From assembly GCA_045655865.1 (NCBI GenBank), contig JAZOQB010000011.1, positions 12,127 to 76,126 on the forward strand: DNA of 64,000 nt, in the 5' to 3' direction. This stretch comes from Eubacteriales bacterium (GTDB lineage Bacteria > Bacillota > Clostridia > Oscillospirales > SIG627). Position 1 is the stretch's first letter. Every line of letters starts with the position of its first letter. A program made the translations under genes and the position numbers. Shown here piece by piece: positions 5,066 through 43,779 of this stretch. The notes beneath the pieces are model-generated. The model was not told the DNA's origin and ran no database searches. It was given only the letters and a program-made list of their open reading frames with translations.

Positions 5066-6016
5066 TTATCGGGGGTTGACTACGTTCCGGGCTTCCCCCG
5101 CTAAATACGCTCGTAAATTCTCCACAAGGATCCCAAAAAGCCGGGCCCGCGTTTCCTTGGGGGCCCAAGCCACGTGGGGCGTAAGAATACAGTTTTTCGC
5201 ACCAATCAGGGGGCAATCTTTCCGCTGGGGCTCCGTGGTAAGTACGTCGGCGGCAAAACCGGCGATTTTCCCTTCGTTAAGAGCCCGGGCCAGGGCCGCC
5301 TCATCCACAAGTCCGCCCCGGGCGGTATTGATCAGATATGCGCCCGATTTCATCCGAGCCAGATTCTCTTCTCCGATGATCCCTTCCGTCTCCGAGGAAA
5401 GAGGGCAATGCAGGGAAAGAAAGTCGCTCTGAGAAAAAAGCGTGTCCAGAGAAACAAGCTCATAGGGCAGATCTTTTTTGGATCGGGCGTGATAGATCAC
5501 CCTCATTCCAAACGCCTCTCCCAGCTTTGCCACCCGCTGACCGATGCTCCCCATTCCCAAAAGGCCCAAGGTTTTGCCCGAAAGCTCCGTCATGGGGTAG
5601 GGATAATAGCAAAAAAGTTTCGAGCGGGTCCAATCTCCCCGGGCAGTAGAAGAAGCGTAAGCCATAAGATTTGTGGCAAACTGCAAAAGGAAGGTCACGG
5701 TGAGCTGAGCTACCGCGTCAGAAGAATAAGAAGGGATGTTGGTGACGGTGATCCCCCGCTCTCTGGCGGCAGAAATATCAACGTTATTATACCCTGTGGC
5801 AGTCAGACCGATGTACCGAAGATTGGGACAGGCGTCCATGATCTCTGATGTCATCTTCACTTTACTGCACAAAACCACCGGGCTGTCTCCAATCAAAGAC
5901 GCCACCTCTTCGGGTTTGGGCGGATCCAGATACCGTACCGGGCCAAAATCTTCCAGCGCCCGGGGACTCAAGTCGCTTCCGCAAACACTTTCCCATTCAA
6001 AAAAAGCAATGTCCAT
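5066..6016 (-). CDS. D-isomer-specific 2-hydroxyacid dehydrogenase (glycerate dehydrogenase-like)
   Basis: NAD-binding GLLGMGSIGQRVA and the C-terminal ILTPHVAW region typical of the family. Start moved to the second ATG (6016) for a GGAGG spacing of 7 nt. Confidence 0.85.
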   Translation of the reverse strand: MDIAFFEWESVCGSDLSPRALEDFGPVRYLDPPKPEEVASLIGDSPVVLCSKVKMTSEIMDACPNLRYIGLTATGYNNVDISAARERGITVTNIPSYSSDAVAQLTVTFLLQFATNLMAYASSTARGDWTRSKLFCYYPYPMTELSGKTLGLLGMGSIGQRVAKLGEAFGMRVIYHARSKKDLPYELVSLDTLFSQSDFLSLHCPLSSETEGIIGEENLARMKSGAYLINTARGGLVDEAALARALNEGKIAGFAADVLTTEPQRKDCPLIGAKNCILTPHVAWAPKETRARLFGILVENLRAYLAGEARNVVNPR

Positions 6017-8443: not shown

Positions 8444-9907
8444 TTACGCCTGGGGAGGATAGGACAAGGGCAAGCTGAAGATCAGCTCCGTATAGTCGTT
8501 GACACGGCTCTCGATCCAAATCTCCTCTCCGTGGGCACTGATAATGGACTTGGCAATAAACAGTCCCAGACCCATCCCGGTCTTATCCACTCCCCGGGAT
8601 CGGTCGGATTTATAAAAACGGTCAAAGATCTGGCTCAATTCCTCGGGAGGGATCCCCTCGCCGGAATTGCGCACAGCAAAAAGAACTTTTTTCGACTTCT
8701 GCGTTACGATCTTAATGGAAAGCTTTCCCTTTTGGGGAACGAATTTTACCGCGTTGTCCAAAAGGTTGTACATCACCTGGGCAATGGCGTCCCGGTCTGC
8801 ATTGACAAAAAGGGAATCCTTTTCACATTCAAAGGACACCTCCACCTGTTTTTCCTCCAGCCGGTTCTCAAAGGAAAGCAAGGTCACCCGTCCCAATTCG
8901 CACAGGTCCATGGGGAGAAAATCGTATTTTCGCTCCCCGGCAGTCAGGCGGCTGGTCTCCAAAAGCGTTTGCACCAGGCGGGAGAGACGGTTCACCTCGG
9001 TCAAAACGATGTCAAAATACCGGCCTTGCCGATCCGGCGGAATGGCTCCCTCTTTCATATTCTGCACAAAACCGCCGATGGTAGTCAAAGGAGTACGCAG
9101 ATCGTGGGAAACGTTGGAAATGAAGCTTTGACGAAGGGTTTCGTTGTCCCGGACGGTTTGCATGGCCTGGTTAAAGGTTCGGATCAAAGGGATCAGCTCT
9201 CCCCCTTTTTCCTCAGGCAAAGCATCCGGGATCTTTCCCCGGATAAAGGAGCTTGCCGCATTGTTCAGTCGCTGCAAAGGAAGGACCAGACGGCGAATCA
9301 AAAGAACGAAGAAGAAAACGGTTCCTGTCACGATCATAGCCGCAGCAAAAAGAAGACTTACAACAAAATGGTGCAGAAAAGGCCCCGGGGCCTTTTCCGG
9401 CTGAATCAAAAACACCGCCCCCACTCTCTGTTTGGAGACCTCGGTGTATTTTTTTTCCAAAAGGATCACCCGGCAGAGCTGTTCTTCTTGTAAAAAGCCG
9501 TCCAGATCCGTGAGAAAACTTGCTCCCTGGCGGGCAGACCGGGCGCTTTCGGTCATACAGGCAGAAGAGAGAACGCCGGAAAAATCCGGGGCAGTGGAAA
9601 GGATCACTTTCCCGGCTCCGTCCGTCAAAAACAACTCCCTCTCATCTTCGCCCCGAGCGCCTTCCAAAGTCGATCGCAAAAGGTCCAGCTCCTCCCGGAG
9701 AAGGTACTGGAGATCTTTTTGAGACACCTCGATCATGGCCGACACGGTTTGGGATACGCTCTCTGTGGCCTGCTCCAAACCTTTTTCCGCCTGGCTTGAA
9801 AAATAAGAAGTGGCAAGAAGCCAGATCTGTCCCATCAAAACGAAAAACCCGGCCAGAACGACAGCCAGCAAAGAGACGCCGTATTTAAAGAAATTGGATC
9901 GTTTCAT
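8444..9907 (-). CDS. Sensor histidine kinase
   Basis: Two TM segments flank an extracytoplasmic domain. H-box SHDLRTPLT and HATPase_c boxes (LDNAVKF, GMGLGL) are present. Confidence 0.92.
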   Translation of the reverse strand: MKRSNFFKYGVSLLAVVLAGFFVLMGQIWLLATSYFSSQAEKGLEQATESVSQTVSAMIEVSQKDLQYLLREELDLLRSTLEGARGEDERELFLTDGAGKVILSTAPDFSGVLSSACMTESARSARQGASFLTDLDGFLQEEQLCRVILLEKKYTEVSKQRVGAVFLIQPEKAPGPFLHHFVVSLLFAAAMIVTGTVFFFVLLIRRLVLPLQRLNNAASSFIRGKIPDALPEEKGGELIPLIRTFNQAMQTVRDNETLRQSFISNVSHDLRTPLTTIGGFVQNMKEGAIPPDRQGRYFDIVLTEVNRLSRLVQTLLETSRLTAGERKYDFLPMDLCELGRVTLLSFENRLEEKQVEVSFECEKDSLFVNADRDAIAQVMYNLLDNAVKFVPQKGKLSIKIVTQKSKKVLFAVRNSGEGIPPEELSQIFDRFYKSDRSRGVDKTGMGLGLFIAKSIISAHGEEIWIESRVNDYTELIFSLPLSYPPQA

Positions 9908-27811: not shown

Positions 27812-30412
27812 TTATTTTAAGGGCTGTTCTTCCAGCGCCCGCATTTTGTATTCCATGTAATACTCTTCGGTCCAAAGAACTTCCCGGGGTTTGGATCCGG
27901 CAAATTCTCCCACAATGCCCATTTCTGCCATAAAGTCAATGAGCTTGGCCGCCCGGGCATAGCCCACGGAAAGGCGGCGCTGCAAAAGGGAAGTTGCGAT
28001 CTTCTTTTCGTGGATCGCCACCTCGATGGCCTTTTCCAAAAGAGGATCCTTATCGGCAAACAGACCGCTCATGCCCTCGCCTTCCCCCTCACTGCCAAAA
28101 GAGGAAAAGGCACCTTTTTTCTTTTCTCCGCACTTTTGTGCTTCTCTTTCGATCAGGTTGGATACGCTCTCGTCGTACTGAGCGCCACGCTGAGCGCGAA
28201 GGAAGTCGCAAACGGATTCTACCTCCTCGTCAGAGACAAAGGACCCTTGAACGCGCATGGGCTTCATTGCGCCAACGGGAGCGTAGAGCATATCTCCCCG
28301 ACCCAACAGCTTTTCCGCGCCCACCACGTCCAAAATGGTACGGGAGTCTACTTGGCTTGCAACGGTGCAGGCGATACGGGAGGGAACGTTGGCCTTGATC
28401 AGACCGGTGATAACGTCCACCGAGGGACGCTGGGTTCCAATGACCAGATGCATGCCGGCCGCTCTGGCCTTTTGGGCAATGCGACAAATGCTGGTCTCCA
28501 CCTCGTCCCGGGCGGTCATCATCAGATCCGCCAGCTCGTCAATGATAATAACGATGTGGCTCATGGGGCGCCGATCGGGATCTCCGGCGGTGATCTCGTT
28601 GTAGGAGGCCATGTCCCGCACGCCAACCTCTTCCATTTCAATAAAGCGCTTTTCCATTTCGATCACCGCCCAGTTCAGGGCGCCGGCGGCTTTTTTCGGA
28701 TCGCTGACCACGGGAACCAAAAGGTGGGGGATCCCGTTATATTTGCCCATTTCCACCTTTTTCGGATCGATCAGGATCATTTGAACCTCTTCCGGTCGGG
28801 CGTGGTAGAGCATACTGACGATAAAGGAATTCAGACACACGGATTTTCCCATACCGGTGGCACCGGCAATGAGAATGTGGGGCATTTTAGAAAGGTCGCA
28901 GTAAATGGCCTTGCCTGCTACGTCGTGACCCAGGCTGCAGTTCAAGCGGCTTTTGGCCTCCCGGAAGGGGGCGGATTCAATGAGAGAGCGAACAAAAACC
29001 GTTTCTTTGGTTTGATTTGGCACTTCGATCCCCACCGCTTCTTTTCCGGGGATGGGCGCCTCAATGCGAACGCCCCCCGCCGCCAGGGCAAGGGCGATAT
29101 CGTCGGTGAGATTGACGATGCTCTTTACGCGCACCCCACGCTGGGGCTGCAATTCATAGCGGGTAACGGTAGGGCCTTTGGAAATACCGATGATGGTGGT
29201 CTTGACCCCGAAGCTCTCCAGGGTCTCTACCAATTTTCTCCCCACGTTTTGCTGCTCCTGCAAGGAGGCGTTGGAAGAGGCCGGGGGGGCCTGTAAAAGC
29301 TCAATGGGTGGGAAGCGGTACTCCGCTTCCGCTTCTTTTTCCTCTTCCTCCAGGGATGCCCTGGAAAATACGGGCTCTTCTCCGTGCTTTTCGGAAAGAC
29401 TCTTTTTCAGCTCGATCTCGGCCCGGAGGTGATCCGGCTCTATCTCTTCCCACGGAAGGTCGGTTTCCGTTTCCGGGGCGTCCTGAAAAATACTCTGGAT
29501 CTGGTCGTGAAGACTGGGAACCGGCTCGGACTCAATTTCCTCAATGGGCCGGATCTCCCGGGCGGCGGCCTCTTCCAGGGCGCGCAGTCTCTCTTTTTCC
29601 AGCTCTTCTTCCTCCTGACGGGGCAGGCGAATGTGAACCTCGCTATCCTTCACCCGGTCCTCAGGAGCTCTTTCTTTTACTTCTTCTCCGCTCTCCATCA
29701 AGGGGCGCCGCTTTCCCTTTTTCTCCGGTGGGAAAATTTCGATCTGTTCTGCCCGGATCCGGGCGCGCTCCAATTTTTCTTCTTCCCTGGCCAATCTGGC
29801 CTCGGCCTGGCGGTCCCGGCGTTCTTCTCTGCTCTCTTTCCACTTTTCACCCATGGGCGAAAATACGCTCCGGATCAATTCCACCGGCGTTTTGCCAAAG
29901 AGAAAAGAGGAAAAGACCACAAGGGCAATGAGGGCAACCACGGGAGTAAACACGCCAACACTCTTTTTCAAGAGGGCATACATCAAACCGCCCACGGCAC
30001 CTCCCCCGGAAAAGGTCAGTCCGCTTTCGTAATTTTCGGCAAAGGAGAAGGAGACGGGGGTGCCTTGAAAGATCGCGCAAAGCACACCCAGAAAGGTCAT
30101 ATCTCCCAGGGTAAACCAGAATTTATACAAGTAGCTTCCTGCCTTCAAGTCCCGTTTATAGAAAATGGCGTGAAGGGCTAAAAGCAGGGGAAACGCCCAA
30201 GCTCCCACGGAAAAAAGTCCCGTGAGAAAAACGCTCAGCCATCCCAAAAATCCAAGCTTGTCTTCCCCCAAAATAAAACACAGGGCAAAAAACAGGGCCA
30301 CGATCCCCAGGATATAGGGCATGAGAATATGAATGGCTTTGTCCTCCGGCCGGCGGCGGGAGGGAGAAAGCTCTTTGGGCGAGCGCTTGGCAGTTTTTTT
30401 CTTAGTCGGCAT
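27812..30412 (-). CDS. ftsK: DNA translocase FtsK/SpoIIIE
   Basis: 866 aa with N-terminal TM helices, an E/R-rich linker, a motor domain with Walker A (GATGMGKS) and Walker B (IIIDELADL), and a C-terminal gamma winged helix. Confidence 0.96.
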   Translation of the reverse strand: MPTKKKTAKRSPKELSPSRRRPEDKAIHILMPYILGIVALFFALCFILGEDKLGFLGWLSVFLTGLFSVGAWAFPLLLALHAIFYKRDLKAGSYLYKFWFTLGDMTFLGVLCAIFQGTPVSFSFAENYESGLTFSGGGAVGGLMYALLKKSVGVFTPVVALIALVVFSSFLFGKTPVELIRSVFSPMGEKWKESREERRDRQAEARLAREEEKLERARIRAEQIEIFPPEKKGKRRPLMESGEEVKERAPEDRVKDSEVHIRLPRQEEEELEKERLRALEEAAAREIRPIEEIESEPVPSLHDQIQSIFQDAPETETDLPWEEIEPDHLRAEIELKKSLSEKHGEEPVFSRASLEEEEKEAEAEYRFPPIELLQAPPASSNASLQEQQNVGRKLVETLESFGVKTTIIGISKGPTVTRYELQPQRGVRVKSIVNLTDDIALALAAGGVRIEAPIPGKEAVGIEVPNQTKETVFVRSLIESAPFREAKSRLNCSLGHDVAGKAIYCDLSKMPHILIAGATGMGKSVCLNSFIVSMLYHARPEEVQMILIDPKKVEMGKYNGIPHLLVPVVSDPKKAAGALNWAVIEMEKRFIEMEEVGVRDMASYNEITAGDPDRRPMSHIVIIIDELADLMMTARDEVETSICRIAQKARAAGMHLVIGTQRPSVDVITGLIKANVPSRIACTVASQVDSRTILDVVGAEKLLGRGDMLYAPVGAMKPMRVQGSFVSDEEVESVCDFLRAQRGAQYDESVSNLIEREAQKCGEKKKGAFSSFGSEGEGEGMSGLFADKDPLLEKAIEVAIHEKKIATSLLQRRLSVGYARAAKLIDFMAEMGIVGEFAGSKPREVLWTEEYYMEYKMRALEEQPLK

Positions 30413-30746
30413 GAATCTCCTCCATGGGATGGGAAGTTAAGGCGATGATGCGGTCCATATCGTCCGGATCCGTTCCGGACAGGGCCGCCTTGTTCCGTAA
30501 AATTTCTCCGCACTTCTCACAGCGATAAATGATCACAAACCCCTTTTTGGGATGGGGCGTGGCGCTGATGGGACGCAAGATCCCCCGGCAAGGATGGGCT
30601 CTGTCACCGGGGTTTTTATCTACGTGCATGGAATACAGACACCGGGGGCAATGATCCCGGCTGGTCACCCCGTTGGGGGGGACATGGCTTTGGCAGTGAG
30701 CGCAAACAAAGCCCTCGTCCCGCATGGCAAAGCGTTTTTCTTCCAT
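30402..30746 (-). CDS. RNHCP domain-containing zinc-binding protein
   Basis: 114 aa with CAHC...SRDHCPRCLYSMHVD...CEKCGE, the RNHCP-type Cys pattern. It overlaps the ftsK start. Confidence 0.75.
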   Translation of the reverse strand: MEEKRFAMRDEGFVCAHCQSHVPPNGVTSRDHCPRCLYSMHVDKNPGDRAHPCRGILRPISATPHPKKGFVIIYRCEKCGEILRNKAALSGTDPDDMDRIIALTSHPMEEIHAD

Positions 30747-30750
30747 GGCT

Positions 30751-31281
30751 TTACTGTGCCTTGGAAAGATCCCGGTCCATGGCTCCTTTGGGCCAGGCCA
30801 GGGTGATCAGGTAATCTCCCAAGGGCATATGCTCCAGTTCGTATTGTTTTCCGTCCAGTTCCGCCAGGCCTTCCCGGACCCTTACCCGATGAAGGGCTCC
30901 GATCCCTTCCCCGGTAATTTTGGATACCGCCTCCTTGGCAGTCCAGGCCCGAACAAAGGACAGTCCCCGCTCCTTTGGGGAGAAAAACTTTTCCACGATC
31001 CGTGGGCGGATCTCAGAGCGCCGTTCCGCATCGATCCCAATGGGAAAAGGGGCAAATACGGCGGCAAAAAAGGGGCCGCAGTGGGTAACGGAAAGATATC
31101 TGTCGCCCCGGGCGAATACCGGCTTTCCGCTTTTTTCATACTCCACCGGAATGATGGGTTCTCCCAAGCTGTTAAAATATCGCCGGGCGGCAGAAACGGT
31201 GATCCCGTGAGAGAGACCTCTCACGTCCCGCCGCCACTCCAGAACAAAAAGGAAACGATTCCCGTCCAGCTTTTCAATCAT
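30751..31281 (-). CDS. 4'-phosphopantetheinyl transferase (Sfp-type)
   Basis: GIDAE and WTAKEAVSK motifs. ATGA overlap with the gyrA stop. Confidence 0.8.
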
Positions 31282-33854
31282 TCTTCTTCTCCGGAAATCT
31301 CATCATCGGAAAGATCGATCTCTTCCACGTCCTCTTGGCTTTCCAGATCGGGAATTTCCTCGTCACACAGTTCTTCCCCGGATTCCACTACGTTTTCCGC
31401 GTCCTTCTCCAGCTCCTTCTCCGCTTTCACTCGCTGGAAGGAGGTCAGACTCTCCCCTTCTTCGGTGCGCATCACGTAGATACCGCTGGCAGAGCGGCTA
31501 ACCAGAGAGATCCCTCTGGCATTGACCCGAACCAGCTTTCCGTTGGAGGCAATGAGGATCAGATCGTCCTCTTCCTCAACAGCGGCGATCCCTACAAGGC
31601 GAACGCCGGCCTTGCCGCCCAATTTCTGGCAGATCATACCCTTACCGCCGCGGTGCTTGGCGGAAAATTCGGAAAAGTCGCTCCGCTTACCTACGCCGTT
31701 ATCGGTAATGGTAACCAGGCTTCTGGTTTCTCCTTCATGGGCGATGGCAAGAGCTCCGCAGACCTCTTCACCCTGGGCCAGGCGCATGGCTCTCACGCCC
31801 CGGGCCACTCTTCCCATCAGGCGGATCTCAGATTCTTCAAAACGAACGGCCAGACCGTTTGTGGCCGCAACAAACAGATCCCGATCCCCTTCGGTCTTGT
31901 TTACGTACAAAAGCTCGTCCTCAGGAGATAAGGTGATGGCACGCACGCCGTCCTGTCGAATGTGCCGGAAGAGCTTTAAGGGTGTGCGCTTCACAAATCC
32001 GCGTTTGGTTACAAAGGACAGAACTTCCTCTGTGTTGATCTTGGGAACGGAAAGGAATGCGGTGATCTTCTCCCCTTCCTTCAGTTTCAAAACGTTTACA
32101 AGGTTGGTTCCCTTGGCGCTTCGGGAAGCTTCGGGAATCTGGAAGCACTTTTTCACGTAGAGCCGCCCGAAATTGGAGAAGAAGAACACAAAGTTATGGC
32201 TATGGCTCACGAAAATATCTCGGATGGAGTCTTCCTCCCGGGTGGTGAGAGCCAGCATACCCTTACCTCCGGTGCGCTGAGCCTGGTATTCGGAGATCTT
32301 CTGACGCTTGATGTAGCCCGCGTGGGTCACGGTGATGACCGCGGTATGCTTTTCGATCAGATCCTCCAGAACGATGTCGTCAGCGGCAGGCTCGATCTGG
32401 GTGCGACGGGCATCGCCGAACTTTCTTGCGATCTCCTGCAGCTCTTCCTTCAAAACGGCAAGAAGCTTGTCCTCGTGGGCCAGAATGTCCTCCAGCTTTT
32501 CCACCAGAGCCTGCTTTTCCGCCATCTCTTCCAGGATTTTTTCAATTTCAAGACCGGCCAGACGACCCAGGGGCATTTCCACAATGGCCTGACCCTGAAT
32601 ATCGGAAAGATGAAAGCGCTCAATCAAAGCTGCCTTGGCTTCGGGCACGGTCTTGTTGGAACGGATGATCCGGATCACCTCGTCGATGTTGTCAATGGCA
32701 ATTTTGTACCCCTCCAGAATGTGGAGACGGGCCAGGGCGCGATTTAAGTCAAAGCGGATGCGGCGACGGGTCACCTCTTCCTGGTGAGAAAGGTAATGCT
32801 CCAGCATTTGCTTTAAATTCAGCGTTTTGGGCTCCCCATTCACCAGAGCGATCATATTGGCCGCAAAGGTGGTCTGCAAAAGGGAATATTTGTAAAGAAG
32901 ATTTAAAATGACCTCTCGGTTGGCATCTTGCCGCAGCTCGATCACCACGCGGATCTTTCCCTTGCAGCTCTCGTCCCGAAGATCTACGATCCCTTCTACC
33001 CTTTTATCCTTTACAAGGTCAGCGATCCCCTTGACCAGCATGGATTTGTTCACCTGGTAGGGAATCTCATCCACCACAATGCACTCCCGTTTGCCCCGGG
33101 TCTCAAAGTGGGTGGTGGCACGCATGGGAATGCTGCCCCGGCCGGTAAGATAGGCCTGCTCAATGCCACTGGTTCCGTGGATCTTGGCGGCGGTGGGAAA
33201 GTCCGGTCCGGGGATGAACTGCATCAGCTCCCGCACGCCGGCATCGGGGTGGTCCATCAGATAGACCACCGCGTCCACCACTTCCGTTAGATTGTGAGGG
33301 GGAATGTTGGTGGCCATACCCACTGCAATTCCCACACAGCCGTTGCACAAAAGATTGGGGAAACGGCTGGGGAGCACCACGGGCTCTTTTAATTTGTTAT
33401 CAAAGTTGGGGACAAAGTCCACCACGTCCTTTTCGATGTCCTGAAGCATGGAGTTTGCCATTTTGGCAAGCCGGGCTTCGGTGTATCGATAAGCGGCAGG
33501 CGGATCTCCGTCCAGGTTTCCGAAGTTACCGTGGCCTTCCACCAGAGGATAGCGCAGAGAAAAGCTCTGGGCCATACGGACCATGGCGTTATAGACCGCA
33601 CTGTCGCCGTGGGGATGATAATGACCCAAAACGTTACCCACGGTGGTGGCGGATTTACGGAAGGGTTTGTCACAAGTCAGATGGTCCACCGACATGGCGT
33701 AGAGGATCCGGCGGTGTACGGGCTTCAATCCGTCCCGCACATCCGGCAGAGCCCGGTCCGTAAGTACGCTCATGGAGTAGTCAATATAGGCCTCCCGCAC
33801 TTCTTTGACAATGTCCACGTTTTCAATTTTCAAGCCTTCTAAATTCAATTCCAT
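31278..33854 (-). CDS. gyrA: DNA gyrase subunit A
   Basis: 858 aa with [16 protein letters not shown], an active-site region ([10 protein letters not shown]), C-terminal beta-pinwheel repeats and a strongly acidic tail. Confidence 0.98.
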
Positions 33855-33885
33855 ATTAGAAATTCCTTTCTCTTCCGATCAGGAG

Positions 33886-34074
33886 TTTTCCACAGCAACT
33901 CTTTCTGTGGAAAAGATGGGGTATGGGCGGTGGATTGTTTCCGGGAGAAGTGAAAAAGCTCCCTTGCCGCCCTCATTTTTTTAAATTTCTCTTTGGCCTT
34001 CTTTTCTTTGCAACGCTGTGGAAAACGCCCCTTAAATTTTGGCTTTTCCCACACAATCCACAGAGTTTTCCACA
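33886..34074. promoter_or_regulatory. DnaA-box cluster in the gyrB-gyrA spacer
   Basis: There are four exact TTTTCCACA/TGTGGAAAA copies (33886-33894, 33906-33914, 34017-34025, 34066-34074). Degenerate copies are TTTTCCCACA 34044-34053 and CAATCCACA 34054-34062. Confidence 0.6.
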
Positions 34075-34075
34075 G

Positions 34076-36205
<2,130 letters not shown>

Positions 36206-36258
36206 CTATTTCAATACGGTCTTTGTGACCGTTACAAAAACGGACCGGTGCGAGATGG

Positions 36259-36522
36259 CTATTTCTTGCAAAACTCTGATGCAAGATGGGACGCTGTGTG
36301 AGAGGAGGAATACAAACTGTCCTTGCCGTATGCGTTACACAAAACAAAGCTGTTCACTTGACTTAAATCCCGCTTTGGCAAAACGGCGTTTCCCTCTTCC
36401 CCCAGTTTTTTTAAAAAGTTCCGCGTTGTGCCTTGTACCGTGGCAGTCTCCGCATTGAGAATGAAAACCGCCTTTTTTTTCGGGATACTGGTTCCATCCC
36501 CAAGATCGAAAAATAATTTCAT
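36259..36522 (-). CDS. remB: DUF370 (RemB/YaaB-like) protein
   Basis: The 87-aa ORF occupies the conserved recF-remB-gyrB position of Firmicutes. The sequence resembles the RemA/RemB family. GAGGA SD. Confidence 0.7.
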   Translation of the reverse strand: MKLFFDLGDGTSIPKKKAVFILNAETATVQGTTRNFLKKLGEEGNAVLPKRDLSQVNSFVLCNAYGKDSLYSSSHTASHLASEFCKK

Positions 36523-36606
36523 TTTCTGTTTCCTCAGATCTTTTTGAAATCCTGATCTCTGATGGGTAAAAACTCTGCGCCGATATCTTTTTTCCGTCTG
36601 TTTTCT

Positions 36607-37701
36607 TTACCGAAAAAAGGCGCCGTTTTCCACTAAGATCCGATTTTTCACAAAGGTAAAATTTTCCGGGTCGGTACCCGTAAGGATCACCTGCTTGCCC
36701 ACAAGACCGGAGGTAATATACTTTCTTCGATGTTCATCCAGTTCCGAGAGCACGTCATCCAAAAGGTACACCGGATCCTGCCCGGTCATTTCCTTGGAAA
36801 TTTCCCCTTCTGCCAATTTCAGAGAAAGAACCACGCTTCTCTGCTGACCTTGGGAAGCAAAGGTACGGGCGGGAAAACCGTTTACCAAAAATTCCACCTC
36901 GTCCCGGTGGATCCCCTTCTGGGTGGATCCGTACTTTTGATCCTGGGAAAACGATTCCAAAAGGGTCTTTTGATATTCCCTTGCCATTTCTTCCTGGCTT
37001 TTTCCTTCTCGGTACACGTCGCTGACGTAGCGAATGGAAAGCTTCTCTTTTTCTCCGCTAATATGGAAAAAATGCCGCGGCGCCATTTCTGAGAGATGAT
37101 GAATGTAATTGGCTCGAATGGAGGCAATTTTCGCGCTGACCTGTGCCAGTCTTTCTTCCCAGACCCGAAAAAAATCCTGGGAAACTTCAGTTTTTTGGCT
37201 CTGTTTTAACAGGGCCGCACGCTGGGATTCGATCTTATTGCACTCGTTTAACAAAGAGGCATAGTAGGGTCTGAGCTGACAGATGGCCCCATCCACAAAG
37301 CTTCTTCGCTTTCCCGGACCGTCCTTAACAAGGGACAGATGCTCCGGACAGAAGAGAACCACCCGAAAAAGACCTAAAAAGTCGCTGAGTCGGGTAAGTC
37401 TGACTCCGTTTTTATAAATTGACTTTCCTTCTTTTTCATCCAGCTGCATTTTCAGCTGAAAAGGAAGTCCCTCACCGGATATCTCAATGATGACCTGAGC
37501 ACGTTTTTTCCCGTGGGCGATCATATCCGTCAAGCGTGGAACCCGAAAGCTTTTTCCGCAGGCCAAAAGGTAAATGGCTTCCACCAAATTGGTCTTTCCC
37601 TGGGCATTTTCACCCAAAAGCACGTTGCTCTCCGGAGAAAAATCAATTTGTGCGGCGGAAATGTTGCGAAAATCGCAAAGAGCGATATGATCCAGGCGCA
37701 T
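36607..37701 (-). CDS. recF: DNA replication and repair protein RecF
   Basis: Walker A GENAQGKTN and ABC-type signature/Walker B (LLDDVLSELD). It directly follows dnaN. Confidence 0.95.
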   Translation of the reverse strand: MRLDHIALCDFRNISAAQIDFSPESNVLLGENAQGKTNLVEAIYLLACGKSFRVPRLTDMIAHGKKRAQVIIEISGEGLPFQLKMQLDEKEGKSIYKNGVRLTRLSDFLGLFRVVLFCPEHLSLVKDGPGKRRSFVDGAICQLRPYYASLLNECNKIESQRAALLKQSQKTEVSQDFFRVWEERLAQVSAKIASIRANYIHHLSEMAPRHFFHISGEKEKLSIRYVSDVYREGKSQEEMAREYQKTLLESFSQDQKYGSTQKGIHRDEVEFLVNGFPARTFASQGQQRSVVLSLKLAEGEISKEMTGQDPVYLLDDVLSELDEHRRKYITSGLVGKQVILTGTDPENFTFVKNRILVENGAFFR

Positions 37702-37702
37702 T

Positions 37703-38824
37703 TTAATTTAAAAGGCGCATGGGCACTACCATGTAGTAAAAGGCGTCGGTCTGGGGACTGCGAATGGCCATTCCGGACAGGGGAGAGGTCAACTCGAAAA
37801 CGATCTCTTCCTGACCGCAGGAGGCGGCGCCCCGGAGGGCTTCCAGAAGATATTTGTTATTAAAGCCCACCAGCATGTTTTCCCCTTCCACCTGGCAGGG
37901 GATCTCCTCGTCGATCTTTCCGTTTCTGGTGGTACATTTGACCTTGACTCCGTCTTGATTTACGCTCAGGTGAATGGCGGACTTTTCTCTCTGGTCGATC
38001 AGAAGGGAGCAACGCTCAAAGCAGGCAATGGCATCTTCTACCTTAAGCTTTACCCGGGTGCGGTACTCCTTGGGAAGGCTCTTTTGATAATCGATGTATT
38101 CTCCATCCACATAGCGGGAGAAGAAAACAAAGTCCTCAAAGGCAAAGATCACGTGACGCCCGGCAAGCTCGATCCGAAGAGACAGGTCTTCCTCGTCGGA
38201 AAGAAGACGGATCAATTCTTGAAGTGTGCGGGCAGGAACCAGAAAACGAACGTCGATCTTGAGTCCTTCAATACACTCCTCATCCCGCAGCGCGATGCGA
38301 TAACCGTCACAGCCGCACATTCTCAAGGTGTTGCCGTGAGATTCAAAAAGAACTGCGGTGAGAATGGGTTTTAGATCCACCACGGCGCAGGAAAAGATCA
38401 CCTGCTGGATCATTTTTTTCAAAATTCCCTGGGGAATGGTAAATTTCTTTTCTCCGGAGAGCATGGGCATGGAAGGCCAGGCCTGGGCGCTCATTCCCAA
38501 AATTTCAAATTTTGCAGGACCTGCGGAAATGGTAGTCACAAAATTGGCATCGCTGGAAATGACAAATTCTCCGTCGGGAAGGCTTCTCACCATGGAGCTG
38601 AGCTTTAACGCATCCAGCAAGATCTCTCCTTCTTCCAGGATCTGTGCTGGAAAGGCGGTTCGAACTCCTTTTGTCATATCAAAGGACATGACCGTTACCT
38701 CTCCATCGCCCCGGGCCTTTAAATAAAGGCAGCAAAGAGCAGCGTTGGCAGCACGGGATGCAATGGCACAAAGATTGGGCGCAATGGCATCCAAAAATAC
38801 TTTTTTGTCAGCGCGAATAAACAT
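37703..38824 (-). CDS. dnaN: DNA polymerase III beta sliding clamp
   Basis: 373 aa with three-domain clamp length and sequence. It ends MVVPMRLLN (the conserved PMRL-type C-terminus) and sits between dnaA and recF. Confidence 0.95.
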   Translation of the reverse strand: MFIRADKKVFLDAIAPNLCAIASRAANAALCCLYLKARGDGEVTVMSFDMTKGVRTAFPAQILEEGEILLDALKLSSMVRSLPDGEFVISSDANFVTTISAGPAKFEILGMSAQAWPSMPMLSGEKKFTIPQGILKKMIQQVIFSCAVVDLKPILTAVLFESHGNTLRMCGCDGYRIALRDEECIEGLKIDVRFLVPARTLQELIRLLSDEEDLSLRIELAGRHVIFAFEDFVFFSRYVDGEYIDYQKSLPKEYRTRVKLKVEDAIACFERCSLLIDQREKSAIHLSVNQDGVKVKCTTRNGKIDEEIPCQVEGENMLVGFNNKYLLEALRGAASCGQEEIVFELTSPLSGMAIRSPQTDAFYYMVVPMRLLN

Positions 38825-39164
38825 AACACATATTCCTCCCGGAAATCAAATTTTGTAAATACGGCCCAAATTCAAACGGGGTCGTCTCTTTTTTTCAAAA
38901 CGCGAAAAGTAAAATGATTTTCTTTTATTTATTCTTTTTTCGTTCGTAGCCGTAGTAGGGGCGGTGAATTCTGTGAATAAAATGGAAAAAGCCCTTAATT
39001 TGGGAAAAAAGAAAGGAAAATTACGCCAATTTTTTCGGTGGAAAAACCATTTAGAAATCCACAGTTTTCACAAAGGGGGAAAGGCAAGAAAACGAAGTGT
39101 TTTTTGCATTGGTTTTTCCCCAGAAAATTCACAGGGAAATCACAGCATCTTTTGTGGAAAAAAT
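38825..39164. other. oriC: Candidate oriC (dnaA-dnaN spacer): DnaA boxes, GC cluster, TAG trios, AT-rich unwinding region
   Basis: Boxes are TGTGAATAA 38972-38980 (adjacent to degenerate GGTGAATTC 38963-38971), GGTGGAAAA 39037-39045, AAATCCACA 39055-39063, AAATTCACA 39125-39133 and TGTGGAAAA 39153-39161. GGGGC lies at 38958-38962. TAGccgTAGTAG lies at 38946-38957. The AT-rich tract spans about 38889-38940. Confidence 0.6.
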
Positions 39165-40613
39165 TTAAGCCTGGATCTCTCGGATAAGGCTTGTGACCTC
39201 TTCCTCAAAAGCAGGATTTTCGTTGATCTTGCTTTTGACCGTCTTTATGGCGGAAAGGATCGTGGAGTGATCCTGGGTAAAGTACCGGGCGATCTCAATG
39301 GAAGACAGATCCGTGATCTCCCGGAGAATGTAGGTGGCTACGTGCCGGGCGTAGACGATATTGGCCTGTTTTTTCTTGCTGGTAATGTCGGAAAGACCCA
39401 CCTGGTATTTGTCACACACGGTCTGGAAGGTTTTCTCTACCGTAGAGTCAACGCTTTCCTTGGGTACCATATCGTCAATACAGCGCCGGGCAAGGTCCAT
39501 GGTGACCCCGGTGGCGAAAATGTCAGAATATCCCTTGAGGCGATTGATGACCCCTTCCAATTGCCGGACGCTGGATTTCATTTGATCGGCAACGAACATT
39601 AAGACCTCATCCGGAATTTCCAGCCCGAGATTTTCTGCCTTGGAACGGGCAATGGCGATTCTAAGTTCCAATTCCGGAGGTTGAATGTCTACCGTCAGAC
39701 CGGATTCAAAGCGAGTGATCATCCGGGCGTTGAGATTTTTGAGAAGTCTTGGGGGACAGTCGCTGGTGAGAATGATCTGCTTGTGCTGCTGGTGCAAAGT
39801 CTCAAAGGTGTGAAAAAGCTCTTGCTGGGCGGATTCTTTTCCGTCGATAAACTGGATATCGTCCAGAAGAAGAACGTCCACGTTCCGGTAGCGTTCCCGA
39901 AAATAGTGCATGGGCTTTTTCAAGGTAAAGTGATCGATCAGATCGTTGGTAAAATCCTCTCCTCTGGCGTAAAGGATCCGTTTGGAGGGATTGTATTTGA
40001 TGATCTCGTTGGAAATGGCAAAGAGAAGATGGGTCTTTCCCATTCCGGAGGGAGAATACAGGTACAGGGGATTCCAAACTTCCGCGGGATTTTTTGCAAC
40101 GGCCATGCAGGCGGAGTACGCCACCCGGTTGGTCTCGCCAACGATAAAGTTATCAAAGGTATAGCCGCCGCCTCTCACGGGAGGGATCTCGGTCTTGATG
40201 ATGGTTCCTCTGGGCTCGGCGATCTGTTTTTTCTCTTCTTCGGATAACGGGGGCTCTTTGGCGTATTCCTCGTTGCCGGCAATTTTACAGAAAACCTTAT
40301 CCGGTAAGATCCCGGTGTTCTGATGTTCCTTGATATAATCCGCCATTTTTTCGTTGTGAAGATCTCTGGAGAAGATAACCAATTCCACCCGGGCGCCTAA
40401 AATTTCAAAAATAGCGGTTTGAAGCTGTTTGTAATACATTTTAAAGACAAATTCACCCCGGTAAAACTCCTTGGCGGAGATGTAGGCGAAGGAATCGGTG
40501 ATCTTTTCCAGCTCCAATTCCTTAAACCAGATGCTGAAGGTAGCCGGGGAAAATCCGGAGGACGAGCGGATAAAATCCAAAACGTGATTCCAGATGGCTT
40601 TGTATGAATCCAT
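39165..40613 (-). CDS. dnaA: Chromosomal replication initiator protein DnaA
   Basis: AAA+ Walker A (GMGKTHLL), Walker B (LLLDDIQF) and a C-terminal DnaA-box binding domain (VYARHVATYILREIT). Start re-set to ATG 40613 (GGAG SD 6 nt upstream). Confidence 0.97.
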   Translation of the reverse strand: MDSYKAIWNHVLDFIRSSSGFSPATFSIWFKELELEKITDSFAYISAKEFYRGEFVFKMYYKQLQTAIFEILGARVELVIFSRDLHNEKMADYIKEHQNTGILPDKVFCKIAGNEEYAKEPPLSEEEKKQIAEPRGTIIKTEIPPVRGGGYTFDNFIVGETNRVAYSACMAVAKNPAEVWNPLYLYSPSGMGKTHLLFAISNEIIKYNPSKRILYARGEDFTNDLIDHFTLKKPMHYFRERYRNVDVLLLDDIQFIDGKESAQQELFHTFETLHQQHKQIILTSDCPPRLLKNLNARMITRFESGLTVDIQPPELELRIAIARSKAENLGLEIPDEVLMFVADQMKSSVRQLEGVINRLKGYSDIFATGVTMDLARRCIDDMVPKESVDSTVEKTFQTVCDKYQVGLSDITSKKKQANIVYARHVATYILREITDLSSIEIARYFTQDHSTILSAIKTVKSKINENPAFEEEVTSLIREIQA

Positions 40614-40659
40614 TTTATTCTCCGATCTGTTTGAAGTCCAAAAGGCATATTTTACGCAC

Positions 40660-40693
40660 ATTATAGTAATATATAATATATTATACTATATTA
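40660..40693 (-). promoter_or_regulatory. Near-pure A/T block upstream of dnaA (candidate dnaA promoter -10 elements or second unwinding element)
   Basis: 34 nt with only two G/C, lying 47-80 nt upstream of the dnaA ATG. The minus strand contains TATAAT hexamers. Confidence 0.4.
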
Positions 40694-40783
40694 GGGAAAA
40701 AATTTCAAGGGTTTTTTGCAAGTTGTCATGCTCTGTCAGGTCAGATGCAAAAGTAGGCTCTGGTGGACAAAAACAGCGTTTTC

Positions 40784-40822
40784 CAAAAAAAAAGAACGGA
40801 AAGCCATATCCGTTCTTTTTAC
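40784..40822 (-). terminator. Rho-independent terminator of asnA
   Basis: Stem AAGAACGG/CCGTTCTT with a 10-nt loop. A long T-run follows on the minus strand. Confidence 0.8.
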
Positions 40823-40837
40823 ACAGCTATTTTGTTT

Positions 40838-41845
40838 TTACAATAAGGTCACGCCGGCCTTGCGGCATATATTTTCCGTTTCTTCATCCCAAAGGGAGAC
40901 CTGGACCTCTCCGATGTGGCACTTTTCCAAAAGAAGAAGACTCATGCGGCTCTGTCCGATGCCACCGCCCATGGTCAAGGGGAGAGTTCCATCCAAAAGA
41001 AGTTTGTGGAAACAAAGCTTGGCACGCTGGGAACAGCCGGCAATTTCCAGTTGTCGGAGAAGAGATTCCGGGGAGACGCGAATCCCCATAGAGGAGATCT
41101 CAAAGGCTTGAGAGAGGGTCTCGTTCCAGAAAAGAAGATCTCCGTTCAGATCCCAATCGTCGTAGTCCGGAGCTCTGCCGTCGTGGGGCTTGCCGGATCG
41201 CAAGGGGGACCCGATCTGCATGAGAAATACGGTCTTGTGCTCTTTGGTAATGGCCGTCTCCCGCTCCTTTGGAGTCAGATGGGGATAACGGTCCTCCAGT
41301 TCCTGTGTGGTAATAAAGGTGACCTTGGGATCCAAGGTGGTTTTCAGGGCAGGAAATTGGGATTTTAAGTAGGTCTGGGTATCACAGATGGCTCGGACGA
41401 TGGCCCGGACGGTGTCTTTCAGATAATCCAGCGTTCTCTCTTCTTGACAGATCACCTTTTCCCAGTCCCACTGGTCCACGTAAACGGAGTGGATGTTGTC
41501 CATCTCCTCATCCCGGCGGATGGCGTTCATATCGGTGTAAAGACCTTCTCCCAAGGGAAAGTGATATTTATGAAGCGCCATGCGCTTCCATTTGGCAAGA
41601 GAATGGACCACCACCGCATCCTTACCGGTTTCCTTCAGATCAAAGCGGACCGGCCGCTCTACGCCGTTCAGATCGTCGTTAAGGCCCGTATCGGGATCCA
41701 CAAACAAAGGCGCGGAAACCCGCTTTAAATTCAATGCATGACACAGATTTTCTTCAAAGATCCGCTTAAGATAGCCGATGGCGGCCTGGGTCTCATACTC
41801 TCCCAAACGGGAGGTATAACCCTTTGGTATCACGGTTTTTGACAT
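40838..41845 (-). CDS. asnA: Aspartate--ammonia ligase (asparagine synthetase A)
   Basis: An AsnA-type class II aaRS-like fold with N-terminus SKTVIPKGYTSRLGEYETQAAI and C-terminus GGGIGQSR. Start set to the second ATG (41845) for GGAGG spacing. Confidence 0.92.
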   Translation of the reverse strand: MSKTVIPKGYTSRLGEYETQAAIGYLKRIFEENLCHALNLKRVSAPLFVDPDTGLNDDLNGVERPVRFDLKETGKDAVVVHSLAKWKRMALHKYHFPLGEGLYTDMNAIRRDEEMDNIHSVYVDQWDWEKVICQEERTLDYLKDTVRAIVRAICDTQTYLKSQFPALKTTLDPKVTFITTQELEDRYPHLTPKERETAITKEHKTVFLMQIGSPLRSGKPHDGRAPDYDDWDLNGDLLFWNETLSQAFEISSMGIRVSPESLLRQLEIAGCSQRAKLCFHKLLLDGTLPLTMGGGIGQSRMSLLLLEKCHIGEVQVSLWDEETENICRKAGVTLL

Positions 41846-41906
41846 GCACATCCTCCAAAATTAAGATTGAAAAGGCTGGGGGAAAAATTTCACGCACACG
41901 CCTTGA

Positions 41907-42395
41907 TTAATAACCCACCTCGCCCAGGGAATCGTCGTTTTCTACCCAGTCGGAAACGGGAATGACCCGGTAGGACTCTCGGCTGTCCCGGATCACCACT
42001 TTTTCAATGCCGGCGTTGATCACCATGCGTTTGCACATCTGGCAGCACGAGGAATTCTCCACGTACTCGCCGGTTTTTACATCCACCCCACACAAAAACA
42101 TGGTAGAGCCGATCATCTGCTCCCGGGAGGCGTTGATGATGGCGTTTTGCTCTGCGTGAACGCTGCGGCACAGCTCGTAACGCTGTCCCCGGGGAATGTT
42201 CATCTCTTCCCTCAGACAGATATTTCGGTCACAGCAATTGGCCCGGCCCCGGGGCGCACCCACGTAGCCGGTGGAGACGATCACATCGTTTTTCACAATA
42301 ATCGCGCCGTACCGTTTGCGCAGGCAAGTCCCCCGCTGAGATACGGTTTCCGCAATATCCAGGTAGTAGTTTTCCTTGGAATTTCGCTTTTCCAT
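41907..42395 (-). CDS. dCMP deaminase (ComEB-like cytidine/deoxycytidylate deaminase)
   Basis: HAEQNAI zinc motif and a CCQMC (PCxxC-type) motif. Start re-set to ATG 42395 (GGAGAGGAG SD). Confidence 0.88.
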   Translation of the reverse strand: MEKRNSKENYYLDIAETVSQRGTCLRKRYGAIIVKNDVIVSTGYVGAPRGRANCCDRNICLREEMNIPRGQRYELCRSVHAEQNAIINASREQMIGSTMFLCGVDVKTGEYVENSSCCQMCKRMVINAGIEKVVIRDSRESYRVIPVSDWVENDDSLGEVGY

Positions 42396-42575
42396 CACGC
42401 CGCTCCTCTCCGAAAACAAAATACTCTATTATGAAATTGTAGCAAAAGGCCGGGGGATTGTCTAGAGGTTTTTGAAATTTTCTCAAAAACGCAGAAAACA
42501 AAAGGATTCTGTCAAAAGAGAAAAACGGACGCTTCCCGGAAAAATGAGTCTTTTTTCTTCTCAAAAGACAAACGA

Positions 42576-42608
42576 AAAAGGTCGGGGCAAAACGCCTCGA
42601 CCTTTTGA
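42576..42608 (-). terminator. Rho-independent terminator of hom
   Basis: Stem GGTCGAGGC/GCCCCGACC (one G-U pair) with a GTTTT loop on the minus strand, followed by TTTTTCGTTT on the minus strand. Confidence 0.75.
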
Positions 42609-42621
42609 TAAAAAATTCGCT

Positions 42622-43779
42622 TCACTTCCACAAAAAGCCTGCAAAGAAGATCTCGTGACCGTTCTCTTTTGCCCGGCGGGCAAAGTCGTGCATATCCCGC
42701 ACGCTTACCTCTTGTGTTTCCCAGCCCTCTTCCCAGGGAGTTTTCTTCAGATTGGCAAAGAAGGGATCCTGGGTAAAGGTGGTGCGCAGATAATAGCGGT
42801 GGCACTCTTTTTCATTGGATACCTCAGCCGGGGTCATGGTATCGTTATAGGGATCAGAAAGCCCCAGAGCCACGTCCAGACAGTCCTGAGCTACGGCGTA
42901 GCCGGTGGGATAGCGACCGGCACCGGCGCCGATAAAGTGGGTCTTTCCGATGTACTCGCCTTCAAAGGCGATGATGTTATCACAGCCGTGGATATTCCCC
43001 TCGGGGGTAAACAGGGGCACCAGAGTGGGCTCTACAAAGGCCGCCACCTCACCGTCACCGCCCACGCGGCAAGCTTTGCCGATGAGCTTTAGGGAAAAGC
43101 CGTGTTTCCGGGCTTGTATGATATCACGCTTTTTTACGTCGCGGATGCCAAAGGCGTCCACCTGTTCATCGTCCAGAGCCACCCCAAAGGCGATGTTGGC
43201 AGAAAGGGTGGTTTTGTGACGGGTATCCAAACCGTCGATATCCGAAGAAGGATCTGCCTCCGCAAATCCCAGGCGCTGAGCCTCGGAAAGGGCCTTGTCA
43301 AATTCCTCCTGGGAGGAATCCATGGCGTCTAAAATGTAATTGGTGGTGCCGTTCATGATCCCGTAAACCCTATCCAGCCGGGTTCCGCGCTGGGCTCTTT
43401 TCAGATTGATCAGCCAGGGGATTCCGCCGCCTGCCGCCGCGGAAAAGCGCAAAGAGACGCCGTTTTCTTTGGCAAGGGAGACCAGTTCCCCATAGTGCAG
43501 GCTCAAAAGAAGCTTATTGGCCGAGACCACGTTCTTTTTGGCACGAAGACTTGCGGTGATAAATTCATACGCCGGATGCAGACCCCCGATGAGCTCCACC
43601 ACGGTTTCCACTTCCGGATCCTGCAGGATCTGATCCAGGCTCTCGGCACGTCTTGCGCCTTCAAGCTCCGGCAGCTCCCTTTTATCCAAAACGTATTTTA
43701 CTTCCACTCCGCTCAGACCTTGGAGAATGTGATAGGCGCCTTCTCCAACCGTTCCGAAGCCAATGAGACCGATTTTCAT
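42622..43779 (-). CDS. hom: Homoserine dehydrogenase
   Basis: N-terminal Rossmann motif (KIGLIGFGTVG), a catalytic-domain match by eye and a GGAGGG SD. It is divergent from thrC. Confidence 0.88.
   Translation of the reverse strand: MKIGLIGFGTVGEGAYHILQGLSGVEVKYVLDKRELPELEGARRAESLDQILQDPEVETVVELIGGLHPAYEFITASLRAKKNVVSANKLLLSLHYGELVSLAKENGVSLRFSAAAGGGIPWLINLKRAQRGTRLDRVYGIMNGTTNYILDAMDSSQEEFDKALSEAQRLGFAEADPSSDIDGLDTRHKTTLSANIAFGVALDDEQVDAFGIRDVKKRDIIQARKHGFSLKLIGKACRVGGDGEVAAFVEPTLVPLFTPEGNIHGCDNIIAFEGEYIGKTHFIGAGAGRYPTGYAVAQDCLDVALGLSDPYNDTMTPAEVSNEKECHRYYLRTTFTQDPFFANLKKTPWEEGWETQEVSVRDMHDFARRAKENGHEIFFAGFLWK

Follow-up and report, generated by a model that had tools for sequence, protein, structure and literature searches.

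We analyzed a 64-kb stretch of DNA from an uncultured gut bacterium of the Clostridia type, an Eubacteriales bacterium (the window; the corresponding loci of relatives, and further metagenome contigs, are labeled L001 upward) and found that the spacer between its gyrase genes, gyrB and gyrA, is packed with copies of the box bound by the initiator DnaA. The best reading of the sequence is that this element is a genuine, conserved, origin-proximal DnaA-box cluster (DBC) of the Bacillus subtilis type. Going one step further, we favor, with a probability of roughly 0.6, the view that the cluster is regulatory, gating gyrA expression and holding DnaA near the origin, and in this way most likely couples both GyrA production and the DnaA available locally to the replication cycle. 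What speaks for a DBC is that the boxes are conserved among relatives, that a variant box in one of them (L064) co-varies with its origin (oriC), and that the unwinding module lies 4.9 kb away.

A box cluster in the gyrB-gyrA spacer

As the original prediction had it, gyrB and gyrA are separated by 221 bp (33855-34075). Both flanking genes score above NCBIfam equivalog cut-offs. The four exact copies of TTTTCCACA that it placed there, at 33886 (+), 33906 (-), 34017 (-) and 34066 (+), are confirmed at those positions. Its near copies TTTTCCCACA, CAATCCACA and GGTGGATTG were also found where claimed, TTTTCCCACA at 34044-34053. Listed in gene direction, from the gyrB stop toward gyrA, the spacer holds these features.

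34066-34074, + strand: perfect DnaA box TTTTCCACA (TGTGGAAAA in gene direction), 1 nt past the gyrB TAA; first box of a distal tandem array
34054-34062, + strand: weak box CAATCCACA (TGTGGATTG in gene direction), 3 nt past the first box
34045-34053, + strand: one-mismatch box TTTCCCACA, with a 0-nt gap to the second box; relatives have TGTGTGAAACT here
34017-34025, - strand: perfect DnaA box TTTTCCACA in the opposite orientation to the tandem array, 20 nt further on
33975-34004, no strand: A-rich spacer center, poorly conserved; at 77% AT the richest 30-mer of the spacer, not of the grade of a DNA unwinding element
33929-33937, - strand: degenerate box-like CAATCCACC, 3 mismatches to TTATCCACA; the near copy GGTGGATTG has these coordinates
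33906-33914, - strand: perfect DnaA box, left half of a proximal inverted pair; aligns with a TTTTYCACA-like element of relatives
33886-33894, + strand: perfect DnaA box, the pair's right half; in relatives the first TGTGAAAC repeat is aligned to it
33864-33871, - strand: gyrA ribosome binding site (RBS) AGAAAGGA, conserved in relatives

The tally is four perfect boxes, one box with a single mismatch and two weaker ones in 221 bp; the element at 33929-33937 is doubtful as a DnaA site. Boxes 34066-34074 and 34054-34062 make up a direct "double box" with a 3-nt gap, matching the preference of Escherichia coli DnaA in vivo for direct box pairs 2-3 bp apart (PMC11317965). At the other end of the spacer the proximal inverted pair, whose halves are 11 nt apart, ends 14 nt before the gyrA RBS and 31 nt before the ATG. 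A 69-aa open reading frame (ORF) within the spacer (33845-34054, - strand) was set aside as spurious, having no Pfam match and lying over the unconserved middle.

Nine exact copies of TTTTCCACA occur in the window, where dinucleotide-preserving shuffles predict 1.21, and nine copies were reached in 0 of 100 shuffles. At the shuffle rate, a stretch of 221 bp would hold at least four exact copies with a Poisson probability of 1.3e-11; at the rate seen outside the spacer the value is 3.7e-9. Only three copies elsewhere in the window had originally been counted; there are five, at 1936, 22862, 25012, 39153 and 52065. The copy at 39153 lies directly past the dnaA stop codon. The other four are single copies inside long ORFs, have no closely spaced partner and are probably non-functional.

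DnaA as the likely binder

The same box motif is common to the gyrB-gyrA spacer and the origin spacer in every genome examined. In L064, all relaxed-box matches within 13.5 kb fall in either the dnaA-dnaN or the gyrB-gyrA spacer, and both spacers use the variant TTTTGCACA. We also counted box pairs, defined as boxes 2-5 nt apart with at most one mismatch in total, over 1.37 Mb of related DNA: the gyrB-gyrA gap accounted for 56, the dnaA-dnaN spacer for 35 and all other places for 8. Taken together, the canonical motif, the co-variation of the L064 variant with oriC and the distribution of pairs make DnaA the likely binder, and that it binds the gyrB-gyrA cluster is, judging from these motifs, highly probable. 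The DnaA encoded in the window retains its C-terminal DNA-binding signature.

Conservation across relatives

Relatives were collected by a GyrA scan, keeping one genome per species, which gave 80 loci from metagenome-assembled genomes of animal and human gut origin, assigned to Eubacteriales, Clostridia, Oscillospiraceae or Lachnospiraceae. Ten of these loci share ~80% GyrA identity with the window, and nine of the ten include the spacer (L060 is a gyrA fragment); the remaining loci are at 54-62%.

Whether related genomes keep boxes in this spacer, a question raised with the original prediction, is answered by the nine close, genus-level relatives, all of which do: their spacers are 238-255 bp long, with 2-4 perfect boxes each. 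The position of box 34066-34074 reads TGTGGAWAA in the window and in all nine (in L004 it is TGTGGATAA), and the TGTGGA core of box 34054-34062 is invariant in the alignment of close relatives. Their segment after the gyrB stop takes the form TGTGGAAAA-N3-TGTGGAnnn-TGTGTGAAACT, followed after ~16 nt by TTTTCCACA. The distal array stands out in the same alignment as a strong footprint, with 30 of 62 columns invariant versus 7 of 118 in mid-spacer. Most close relatives carry a palindrome, TTTTCCACA-N3/4-TGTGGAAAA, of which the window has kept the left half at 34017-34025, the right half having decayed to TTGCAAAGA.

The proximal element is less uniform. The nine closest relatives have two direct TGTGAAAC repeats at the place where the window has its TTTTCCACA-N11-TGTGGAAAA inverted pair, and the window's pair is thus, by alignment, a lineage-specific form of a conserved proximal element.

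The 8-mer TGTGAAAC has a distribution of its own. In the spacers of L001-L009 it occurs, as an exact match, three times in most (two in L005, one in L003), one copy being in the distal array and two forming a direct repeat, spaced by 14-15 nt, immediately before the gyrA RBS (for example at 9779, 9944 and 9958 in L007, and at 5775, 5942 and 5956 in L009). Elsewhere in the close relatives there are 2 matches in ~125 kb, with none in their dnaA-dnaN spacers, and the 64-kb window has none at all. The 8-mer could serve DnaA as a site kept weak on purpose, or it could be bound by a second factor.

Intergenic clusters also occur at 54-62% GyrA identity, in L010-L012, L063, L067, L070-L072, L075 and L076. 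In L054 and L064 the clusters are built of the variant TGTGCAAAA, and both have three direct boxes with the 3-nt and 0-nt gaps seen in the window. At least two boxes are present in 17 of the 19 spacers that exceed 150 bp and contain no inserted gene, and boxes are absent from the spacers of 27-60 bp among the related loci. The cluster therefore accounts for the unusual length of the spacer.

Boxes inside an inserted pfkB gene

A gene for a PfkB-family sugar kinase stands between gyrB and gyrA in 26 of the 80 loci. Gaps of 950-1100 bp in distant relatives were accordingly rejected as intergenic, since they contain this gene and their boxes are intragenic; these boxes were excluded from the intergenic tally and analyzed separately. 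In 12 of the 26 pfkB loci, spanning at least four diverged groups, 2-3 perfect boxes are embedded in the coding sequence, at 300-550 bp upstream of gyrA and often in the 3-nt-spaced layout of the intergenic clusters. These loci are as follows.

L038, L042, L043, L045, L048, L050, L059, L061 and L077-L080: pfkB with intragenic boxes (e.g. L045 9063-9953; L080 8903-9859)

The 12 genes are mutually related and do not represent twelve independent events; the other 14 pfkB loci have no boxes. Two reading frames are used, GTG GAA AA encoding V-E-K and TGT GGA AAA encoding C-G-K. When the codons of each pfkB gene were shuffled synonymously, as many boxes arose in <1e-4 to 6.5% of trials, depending on the gene. 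Boxes in two frames, at numbers above the synonymous-shuffle expectation, point to DNA-level selection for boxes at the gyrB-gyrA position of the chromosome.

The probable unwinding origin lies between dnaA and dnaN

In its number of perfect boxes the gyrB-gyrA spacer exceeds the presumed oriC, as had been claimed: four, against one in the dnaA-dnaN spacer and zero in the region upstream of dnaA. The dnaA-dnaN spacer adds three one-mismatch boxes to its single perfect one, and it contains the following module.

38900-38980, - strand: probable oriC unwinding module in the dnaA-dnaN spacer, by its box, GC, trio and AT content, conserved in relatives

In gene direction this module consists of the tandem boxes TTATTCACA-g-AATTCACC, a GCCCC clamp, the trio-like repeats CTACTACGGCTACGAA and a 30-mer of 90% AT, and among seven relatives the block is the best-conserved section of the dnaA-dnaN spacer. 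Its layout matches that of the basal unwinding system (BUS), in which tandem boxes are followed by a short GC spacer, then by DnaA-trios and an AT-rich tract (PMC8287927). The relatives have a conserved CTACTAC trio module in this spacer; the window has two repeats before its run is interrupted, for which reason we would call its module BUS-like.

The gyrB-gyrA spacer has no such composition. It lacks a run of at least three consecutive trios 0-16 bp from a box, offering a marginal CTCTTTCTG alone, overlapped by the next box, and it lacks an AT-rich unwinding tract, reaching at most 77% AT in 30 nt versus 90% in the dnaA-dnaN spacer. A conserved box/GC/trio/AT module in one spacer, with neither trio run nor AT tract in the other, identifies the dnaA-dnaN spacer, ~4.9 kb from the gyrB-gyrA cluster, as the predicted unwinding origin. 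The cumulative GC skew has its minimum at ~36-38 kb, which is too coarse to tell the candidate spacers apart.

Upstream of dnaA, the 176-bp asnA-dnaA spacer contains a terminator-like hairpin of asnA and a very AT-rich, promoter-like stretch, TATAGTATAATATATTATATATTACTATAAT. This region is nearly box-free in the window and its relatives alike; the usual dnaA-promoter cluster is missing in the clade.

A triple module and the link to gyrA

The more distant relatives share a tighter arrangement. The core TTTTCCACA-N3-TGTGGAAAA-N3-TGTGGAAAA-ctt is found in the spacers of L011, L012, L063, L067, L070, L071 and L076 and also inside pfkB genes, with a looser version in L010. Its consensus, TTWTCCACA-N3-TGTGGAWAA-N3-TGTGGAWAA, faces gyrA in every case. 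We scanned metagenome contigs without bias for the exact triple and found it upstream of, and co-oriented with, dnaA in 32 of 38 dnaA-bearing contigs. In 12 contigs without a marker gene, and in L146, where dnaA is also present, it lies ~154 nt upstream of a TatD-like gene, and in one further contig it lies inside a pfkB-like ORF. Occurring mostly upstream of dnaA, and also upstream of the tatD-like gene, the triple is, as far as its genomic contexts indicate, a generic DnaA operator layout and not a hallmark of DnaA-reactivating sequences (DARS). The TatD-like hydrolase gene (MIFDTHAHYDDEQF...) that the triple precedes belongs to a recurrent gut organism (contigs L085, L089, L093, L098, L105, L113, L132, L134, L135, L140 and L158) and may be another target of DnaA-box clusters.

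The orientation of the triple follows the downstream gene both at gyrA and at dnaA, and relative to the unwinding site it is opposite between these two contexts. In addition, the window, L011, L012, L071 and L075 each have a box at 10-25 nt before the gyrA RBS. Boxes here have an orientation and position fixed relative to the downstream gene, as at DnaA-regulated promoters of the dnaA, ywlC, yydA and sda type. An orientation that tracks the downstream gene and a recurrent box near the RBS favor a transcription-linked role, and a role linked to gyrA transcription is plausible on this pattern.

We propose the following course of events. The cluster would serve as a second DnaA assembly site, ~4.9 kb from the unwinding site. 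Its distal part would comprise the three tandem boxes after the gyrB stop (3-nt and 0-nt gaps) and the inverted box 20 nt on, and its proximal part the inverted perfect pair ending 14 nt before the gyrA RBS. DnaA would occupy the perfect boxes first and then spread cooperatively to the adjoining weaker ones, and DnaA-DnaA contacts could bridge the two sub-clusters, ~110 bp apart. The bound complex would impede RNA polymerase on its way into gyrA, whether by blocking read-through from gyrB like a roadblock or by covering a weak promoter of gyrA, and the supply of GyrA would then follow DnaA occupancy. At the same time the cluster, duplicated right after initiation, would keep DnaA beside the origin. 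What the sequences show are the boxes, their enrichment and conservation, their co-variation with those of oriC and the lack of unwinding elements; that DnaA binds, in which direction it would affect gyrA and whether it would shift the timing of initiation are inferred.

Weighing the explanations

Several observations weigh against a cluster that gates gyrA. The proximal elements, those nearest gyrA, are not kept as canonical boxes, with TGTGAAAC repeats in their place in the nine closest relatives; conservation is strongest in the distal array, which is 150-500 bp from gyrA; and the boxes inside pfkB point to a role that depends on position rather than on a promoter. No sigma-70-like promoter was located in gene direction in the spacers of the window, L007, L011 and L071, consensus scans being weak evidence either way, and consensus terminator scans of the same four spacers yielded no consistent result. 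Possibly gyrB and gyrA share a transcript; the cluster would then be a roadblock rather than a classical operator. Precedent from model organisms for this target is also wanting. The main text of the B. subtilis ChAP-chip study reports eight DnaA-bound regions without mention of gyr (PMC2533591), and gyrA and gyrB go unmentioned in the text and supplements of the IDAP-seq study as far as these were accessible (PMC4447404); to that extent, neither paper records DnaA binding at gyrB or gyrA in B. subtilis. Of the three roles originally proposed, the DBC fits best and a gyrA promoter under DnaA control stays plausible, though no promoter was located; an extra origin module is disfavored by the missing trio run and AT tract.

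The same conserved distal array, adjoining the gyrB stop far from gyrA, suits a pure sink or modulator of DnaA, which by titration, or by inactivation as has been suggested for some B. subtilis DBCs, would restrain re-initiation without meaningful effect on gyrA, and for which position would matter only because the site is replicated seconds after initiation. Boxes kept inside the inserted pfkB in two frames, above the synonymous-shuffle expectation, agree with this, as does the early initiation that follows DBC deletion in B. subtilis (PMC3245932). A simple sink, however, needs no orientation, and the triple has one, fixed toward the downstream gene both here and upstream of dnaA; nor does it call for the recurrent box beside the gyrA RBS. 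Moreover, 14 of the 26 pfkB loci and all short-spacer loci have no boxes, so the element is dispensable in many relatives. On balance we think a pure sink unlikely. The near absence of boxes upstream of dnaA in the window and its relatives raises another prospect, namely that the cluster is an auxiliary origin module: the cluster that other Firmicutes have upstream of dnaA (oriC1/incAB) would here have been displaced and would loop with the dnaA-dnaN module. The triple found upstream of dnaA in other bacteria does sit here between gyrB and gyrA, bipartite origins in B. subtilis, Clostridioides difficile and Helicobacter pylori need both of their clusters (PMC7561715), and the GC-skew minimum at 36-38 kb falls too broadly to separate the two spacers. 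Against this stand the composition of the spacer (no DnaA-trio run, and 77% versus 90% AT in 30 nt), convergent boxes that leave no space for a filament to grow into flanking DNA, the complete absence of the cluster from many relatives, and a triple that is reversed relative to the unwinding site when compared with the copies upstream of dnaA. The idea that genomes with the cluster compensate for fewer dnaA-dnaN boxes or a shorter dnaA-dnaN spacer was rejected as well (Spearman rho -0.10 and -0.15, n=46, not significant). These points make an auxiliary origin module decidedly improbable.

An element of the DARS type, recycling ADP-DnaA to ATP-DnaA by means of a head-to-head pair and a third box, is suggested by the TTTTCCACA-N3-TGTGGAAAA-N3-TGTGGAAAA of relatives, which has its boxes oriented as in E. 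coli DARS1 and, like it, separates boxes II and III by 3 bp. A DARS core has box I opposite to boxes II and III, with gaps of 5 and 3 bp. The window has instead three direct boxes with gaps of 3 and 0 nt and an inverted box 20 nt off; its tight convergent pair is gone, the partner having decayed, and the halves of its proximal convergent pair are 11 nt apart. In relatives the orientation is right, with gaps of 3-4 bp (not 5) between boxes I and II and 3 bp between II and III. The same triple stands upstream of dnaA and of the tatD-like gene in many unrelated contigs, and no DARS is known in Firmicutes (PMC13220808), all of which leaves a DARS-like element with hardly any likelihood. Somewhat broader, and quite unlikely in our estimation, is the notion that either the second cluster of a bipartite Firmicute origin has moved from upstream of dnaA to the gyrB-gyrA spacer or the cluster is a Clostridial nucleotide switch for DnaA resembling DARS or datA. 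If the former were true, the origin would be split over ~5 kb with dnaN-recF-orf87-gyrB in the loop, and either would explain why boxes persist at this exact position inside pfkB. Finally, DnaA might not be involved at all, the spacer being the site of another protein or an intercistronic RNA structure for processing or stability of a gyrBA mRNA. The spacer RNA, with the box palindromes as stems, folds slightly better than its shuffles do (z -1.82, matched by 10 of 200), which leans that way, and the spacer-specific TGTGAAAC of relatives, absent from oriC, could mark a second factor. Yet the 9-mer is the canonical DnaA box and is common to oriC, and the L064 variant co-varies with oriC. As for RNA, directly repeated boxes cannot pair with one another, A/T changes at box position 3 (L004, L005, L008) are uncompensated in the would-be stem, and relatives have direct repeats where the window has its proximal hairpin; an Rfam search of 30000-43000, at E up to 1, gave no RNA family. 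We regard the absence of DnaA as very unlikely. A DnaA-box cluster that gates gyrA and holds DnaA near the origin is therefore the reading that we retain.

Comparison with known clusters

Six DBCs lie outside oriC in B. subtilis, where they regulate neighboring genes and hold back initiation, and DBCs near the origin are frequent in Firmicutes, upstream of genes that vary from species to species (PMC3245932). The gyrB-gyrA element shares their features: dense consensus and near-consensus boxes of high affinity in intergenic, non-coding DNA, a location outside but near oriC (~4.9 kb from the dnaA-dnaN module), no unwinding element, and a neighboring gene that is potentially regulated. It differs in lying inside a possible gyrBA operon, in being conserved to 54% GyrA identity and in falling, in some lineages, within the coding sequence of pfkB. 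With the dnaA-promoter (oriC1) clusters it shares the triple layout of one inverted and two direct boxes with 3-bp gaps, facing the downstream gene; here, however, that gene is gyrA, the cluster is on the other side of the unwinding site, and the region upstream of dnaA is almost box-free in the clade.

The E. coli DARS1 core, read from NC_000913 (MG1655) at 813107-813141 as TTATCCACT-N5-TGTGGATAA-N3-TGTGTATTA, agrees with its published description (PMC6868365, PMC5742627). Like the triple, the cores of DARS1 and DARS2 contain three boxes of which the first points the other way, and their second and third boxes are separated by 3 bp. Unlike them, the clusters described here have a first gap of 3-4 and not 5 bp, no tight pair in the window, no IHF or Fis sites, and a layout that is not specific to the site. 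E. coli datA and the origin-proximal cluster of Streptomyces are likewise non-origin box clusters that restrain initiation, datA requiring IHF and its specific boxes 2, 3 and 7; no counterpart of that architecture was looked for or seen here. In Borrelia, DnaA binds a divergent gyrB-dnaA spacer, which is a different arrangement (PMC9879097).

Complexes of DnaA with its boxes can act as transcription roadblocks, as at E. coli asnC-mioC and at the intragenic guaB box. The present cluster resembles these in placing boxes in what would be a transcribed stretch between co-oriented genes and differs in having at least five boxes, not one.

In the literature that we searched there is no description of DnaA boxes between gyrB and gyrA, in agreement with the original claim that the location had not been described; the general class is already established (PMC3245932). 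What we did not find in that literature is the gyrB-gyrA location, the breadth of its conservation and its persistence inside pfkB; the kind of element is itself known.

The surrounding locus

In the window the genes run asnA-dnaA-dnaN-recF-87-aa ORF-gyrB-gyrA, all on the minus strand, which is the classic gene order of an origin region.

40838-41851, - strand: asnA (ORF list, NCBIfam)
39165-40661, - strand: dnaA (ORF list, NCBIfam), with a full-length match to the DnaA equivalog model
37703-38824, - strand: dnaN (ORF list, NCBIfam)
36607-37701, - strand: recF (ORF list, NCBIfam)
36259-36522, - strand: 87-aa ORF between recF and gyrB
34076-36199, - strand: gyrB, above the NCBIfam equivalog cut-off; ORF taken from the first TTG
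31278-33854, - strand: gyrA, above the NCBIfam equivalog cut-off (NF004043, 1095 bits)

The gyrB ORF begins with a TTG, and homology to GyrB models and to relatives sets in only at about residue 20-40; the real start codon probably lies downstream of 36199. The 87-aa ORF has no match in Pfam or NCBIfam, is 60-71% identical in close relatives and occupies the position of the small yaaB/remB-type gene of other Firmicutes. Immediately upstream of dnaA and on the same strand is asnA, and the usual rpmH-rnpA neighbors are absent (40662-41851).

Implications

DnaA regulons and origin-proximal clusters have been mapped in few model bacteria, and in none of the uncultured Clostridia of Oscillospiraceae or Lachnospiraceae type that dominate the gut. 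To a specialist the link to gyrase and the persistence of boxes within a gene are noteworthy; another DBC near oriC is unsurprising. The boxes persisting in pfkB coding sequence offer a small, clean example of DNA-level selection acting over a protein-coding gene. Tools for origin prediction should be used with caution, as the densest cluster of perfect boxes in these genomes is not the origin. The spacer also provides a short DNA target for binding and reporter tests in cultured relatives. If the reading is true, a DnaA site between the gyrase genes would tie the initiator directly to the enzyme that sets supercoiling at the origin, a plausible and previously undescribed feedback loop.

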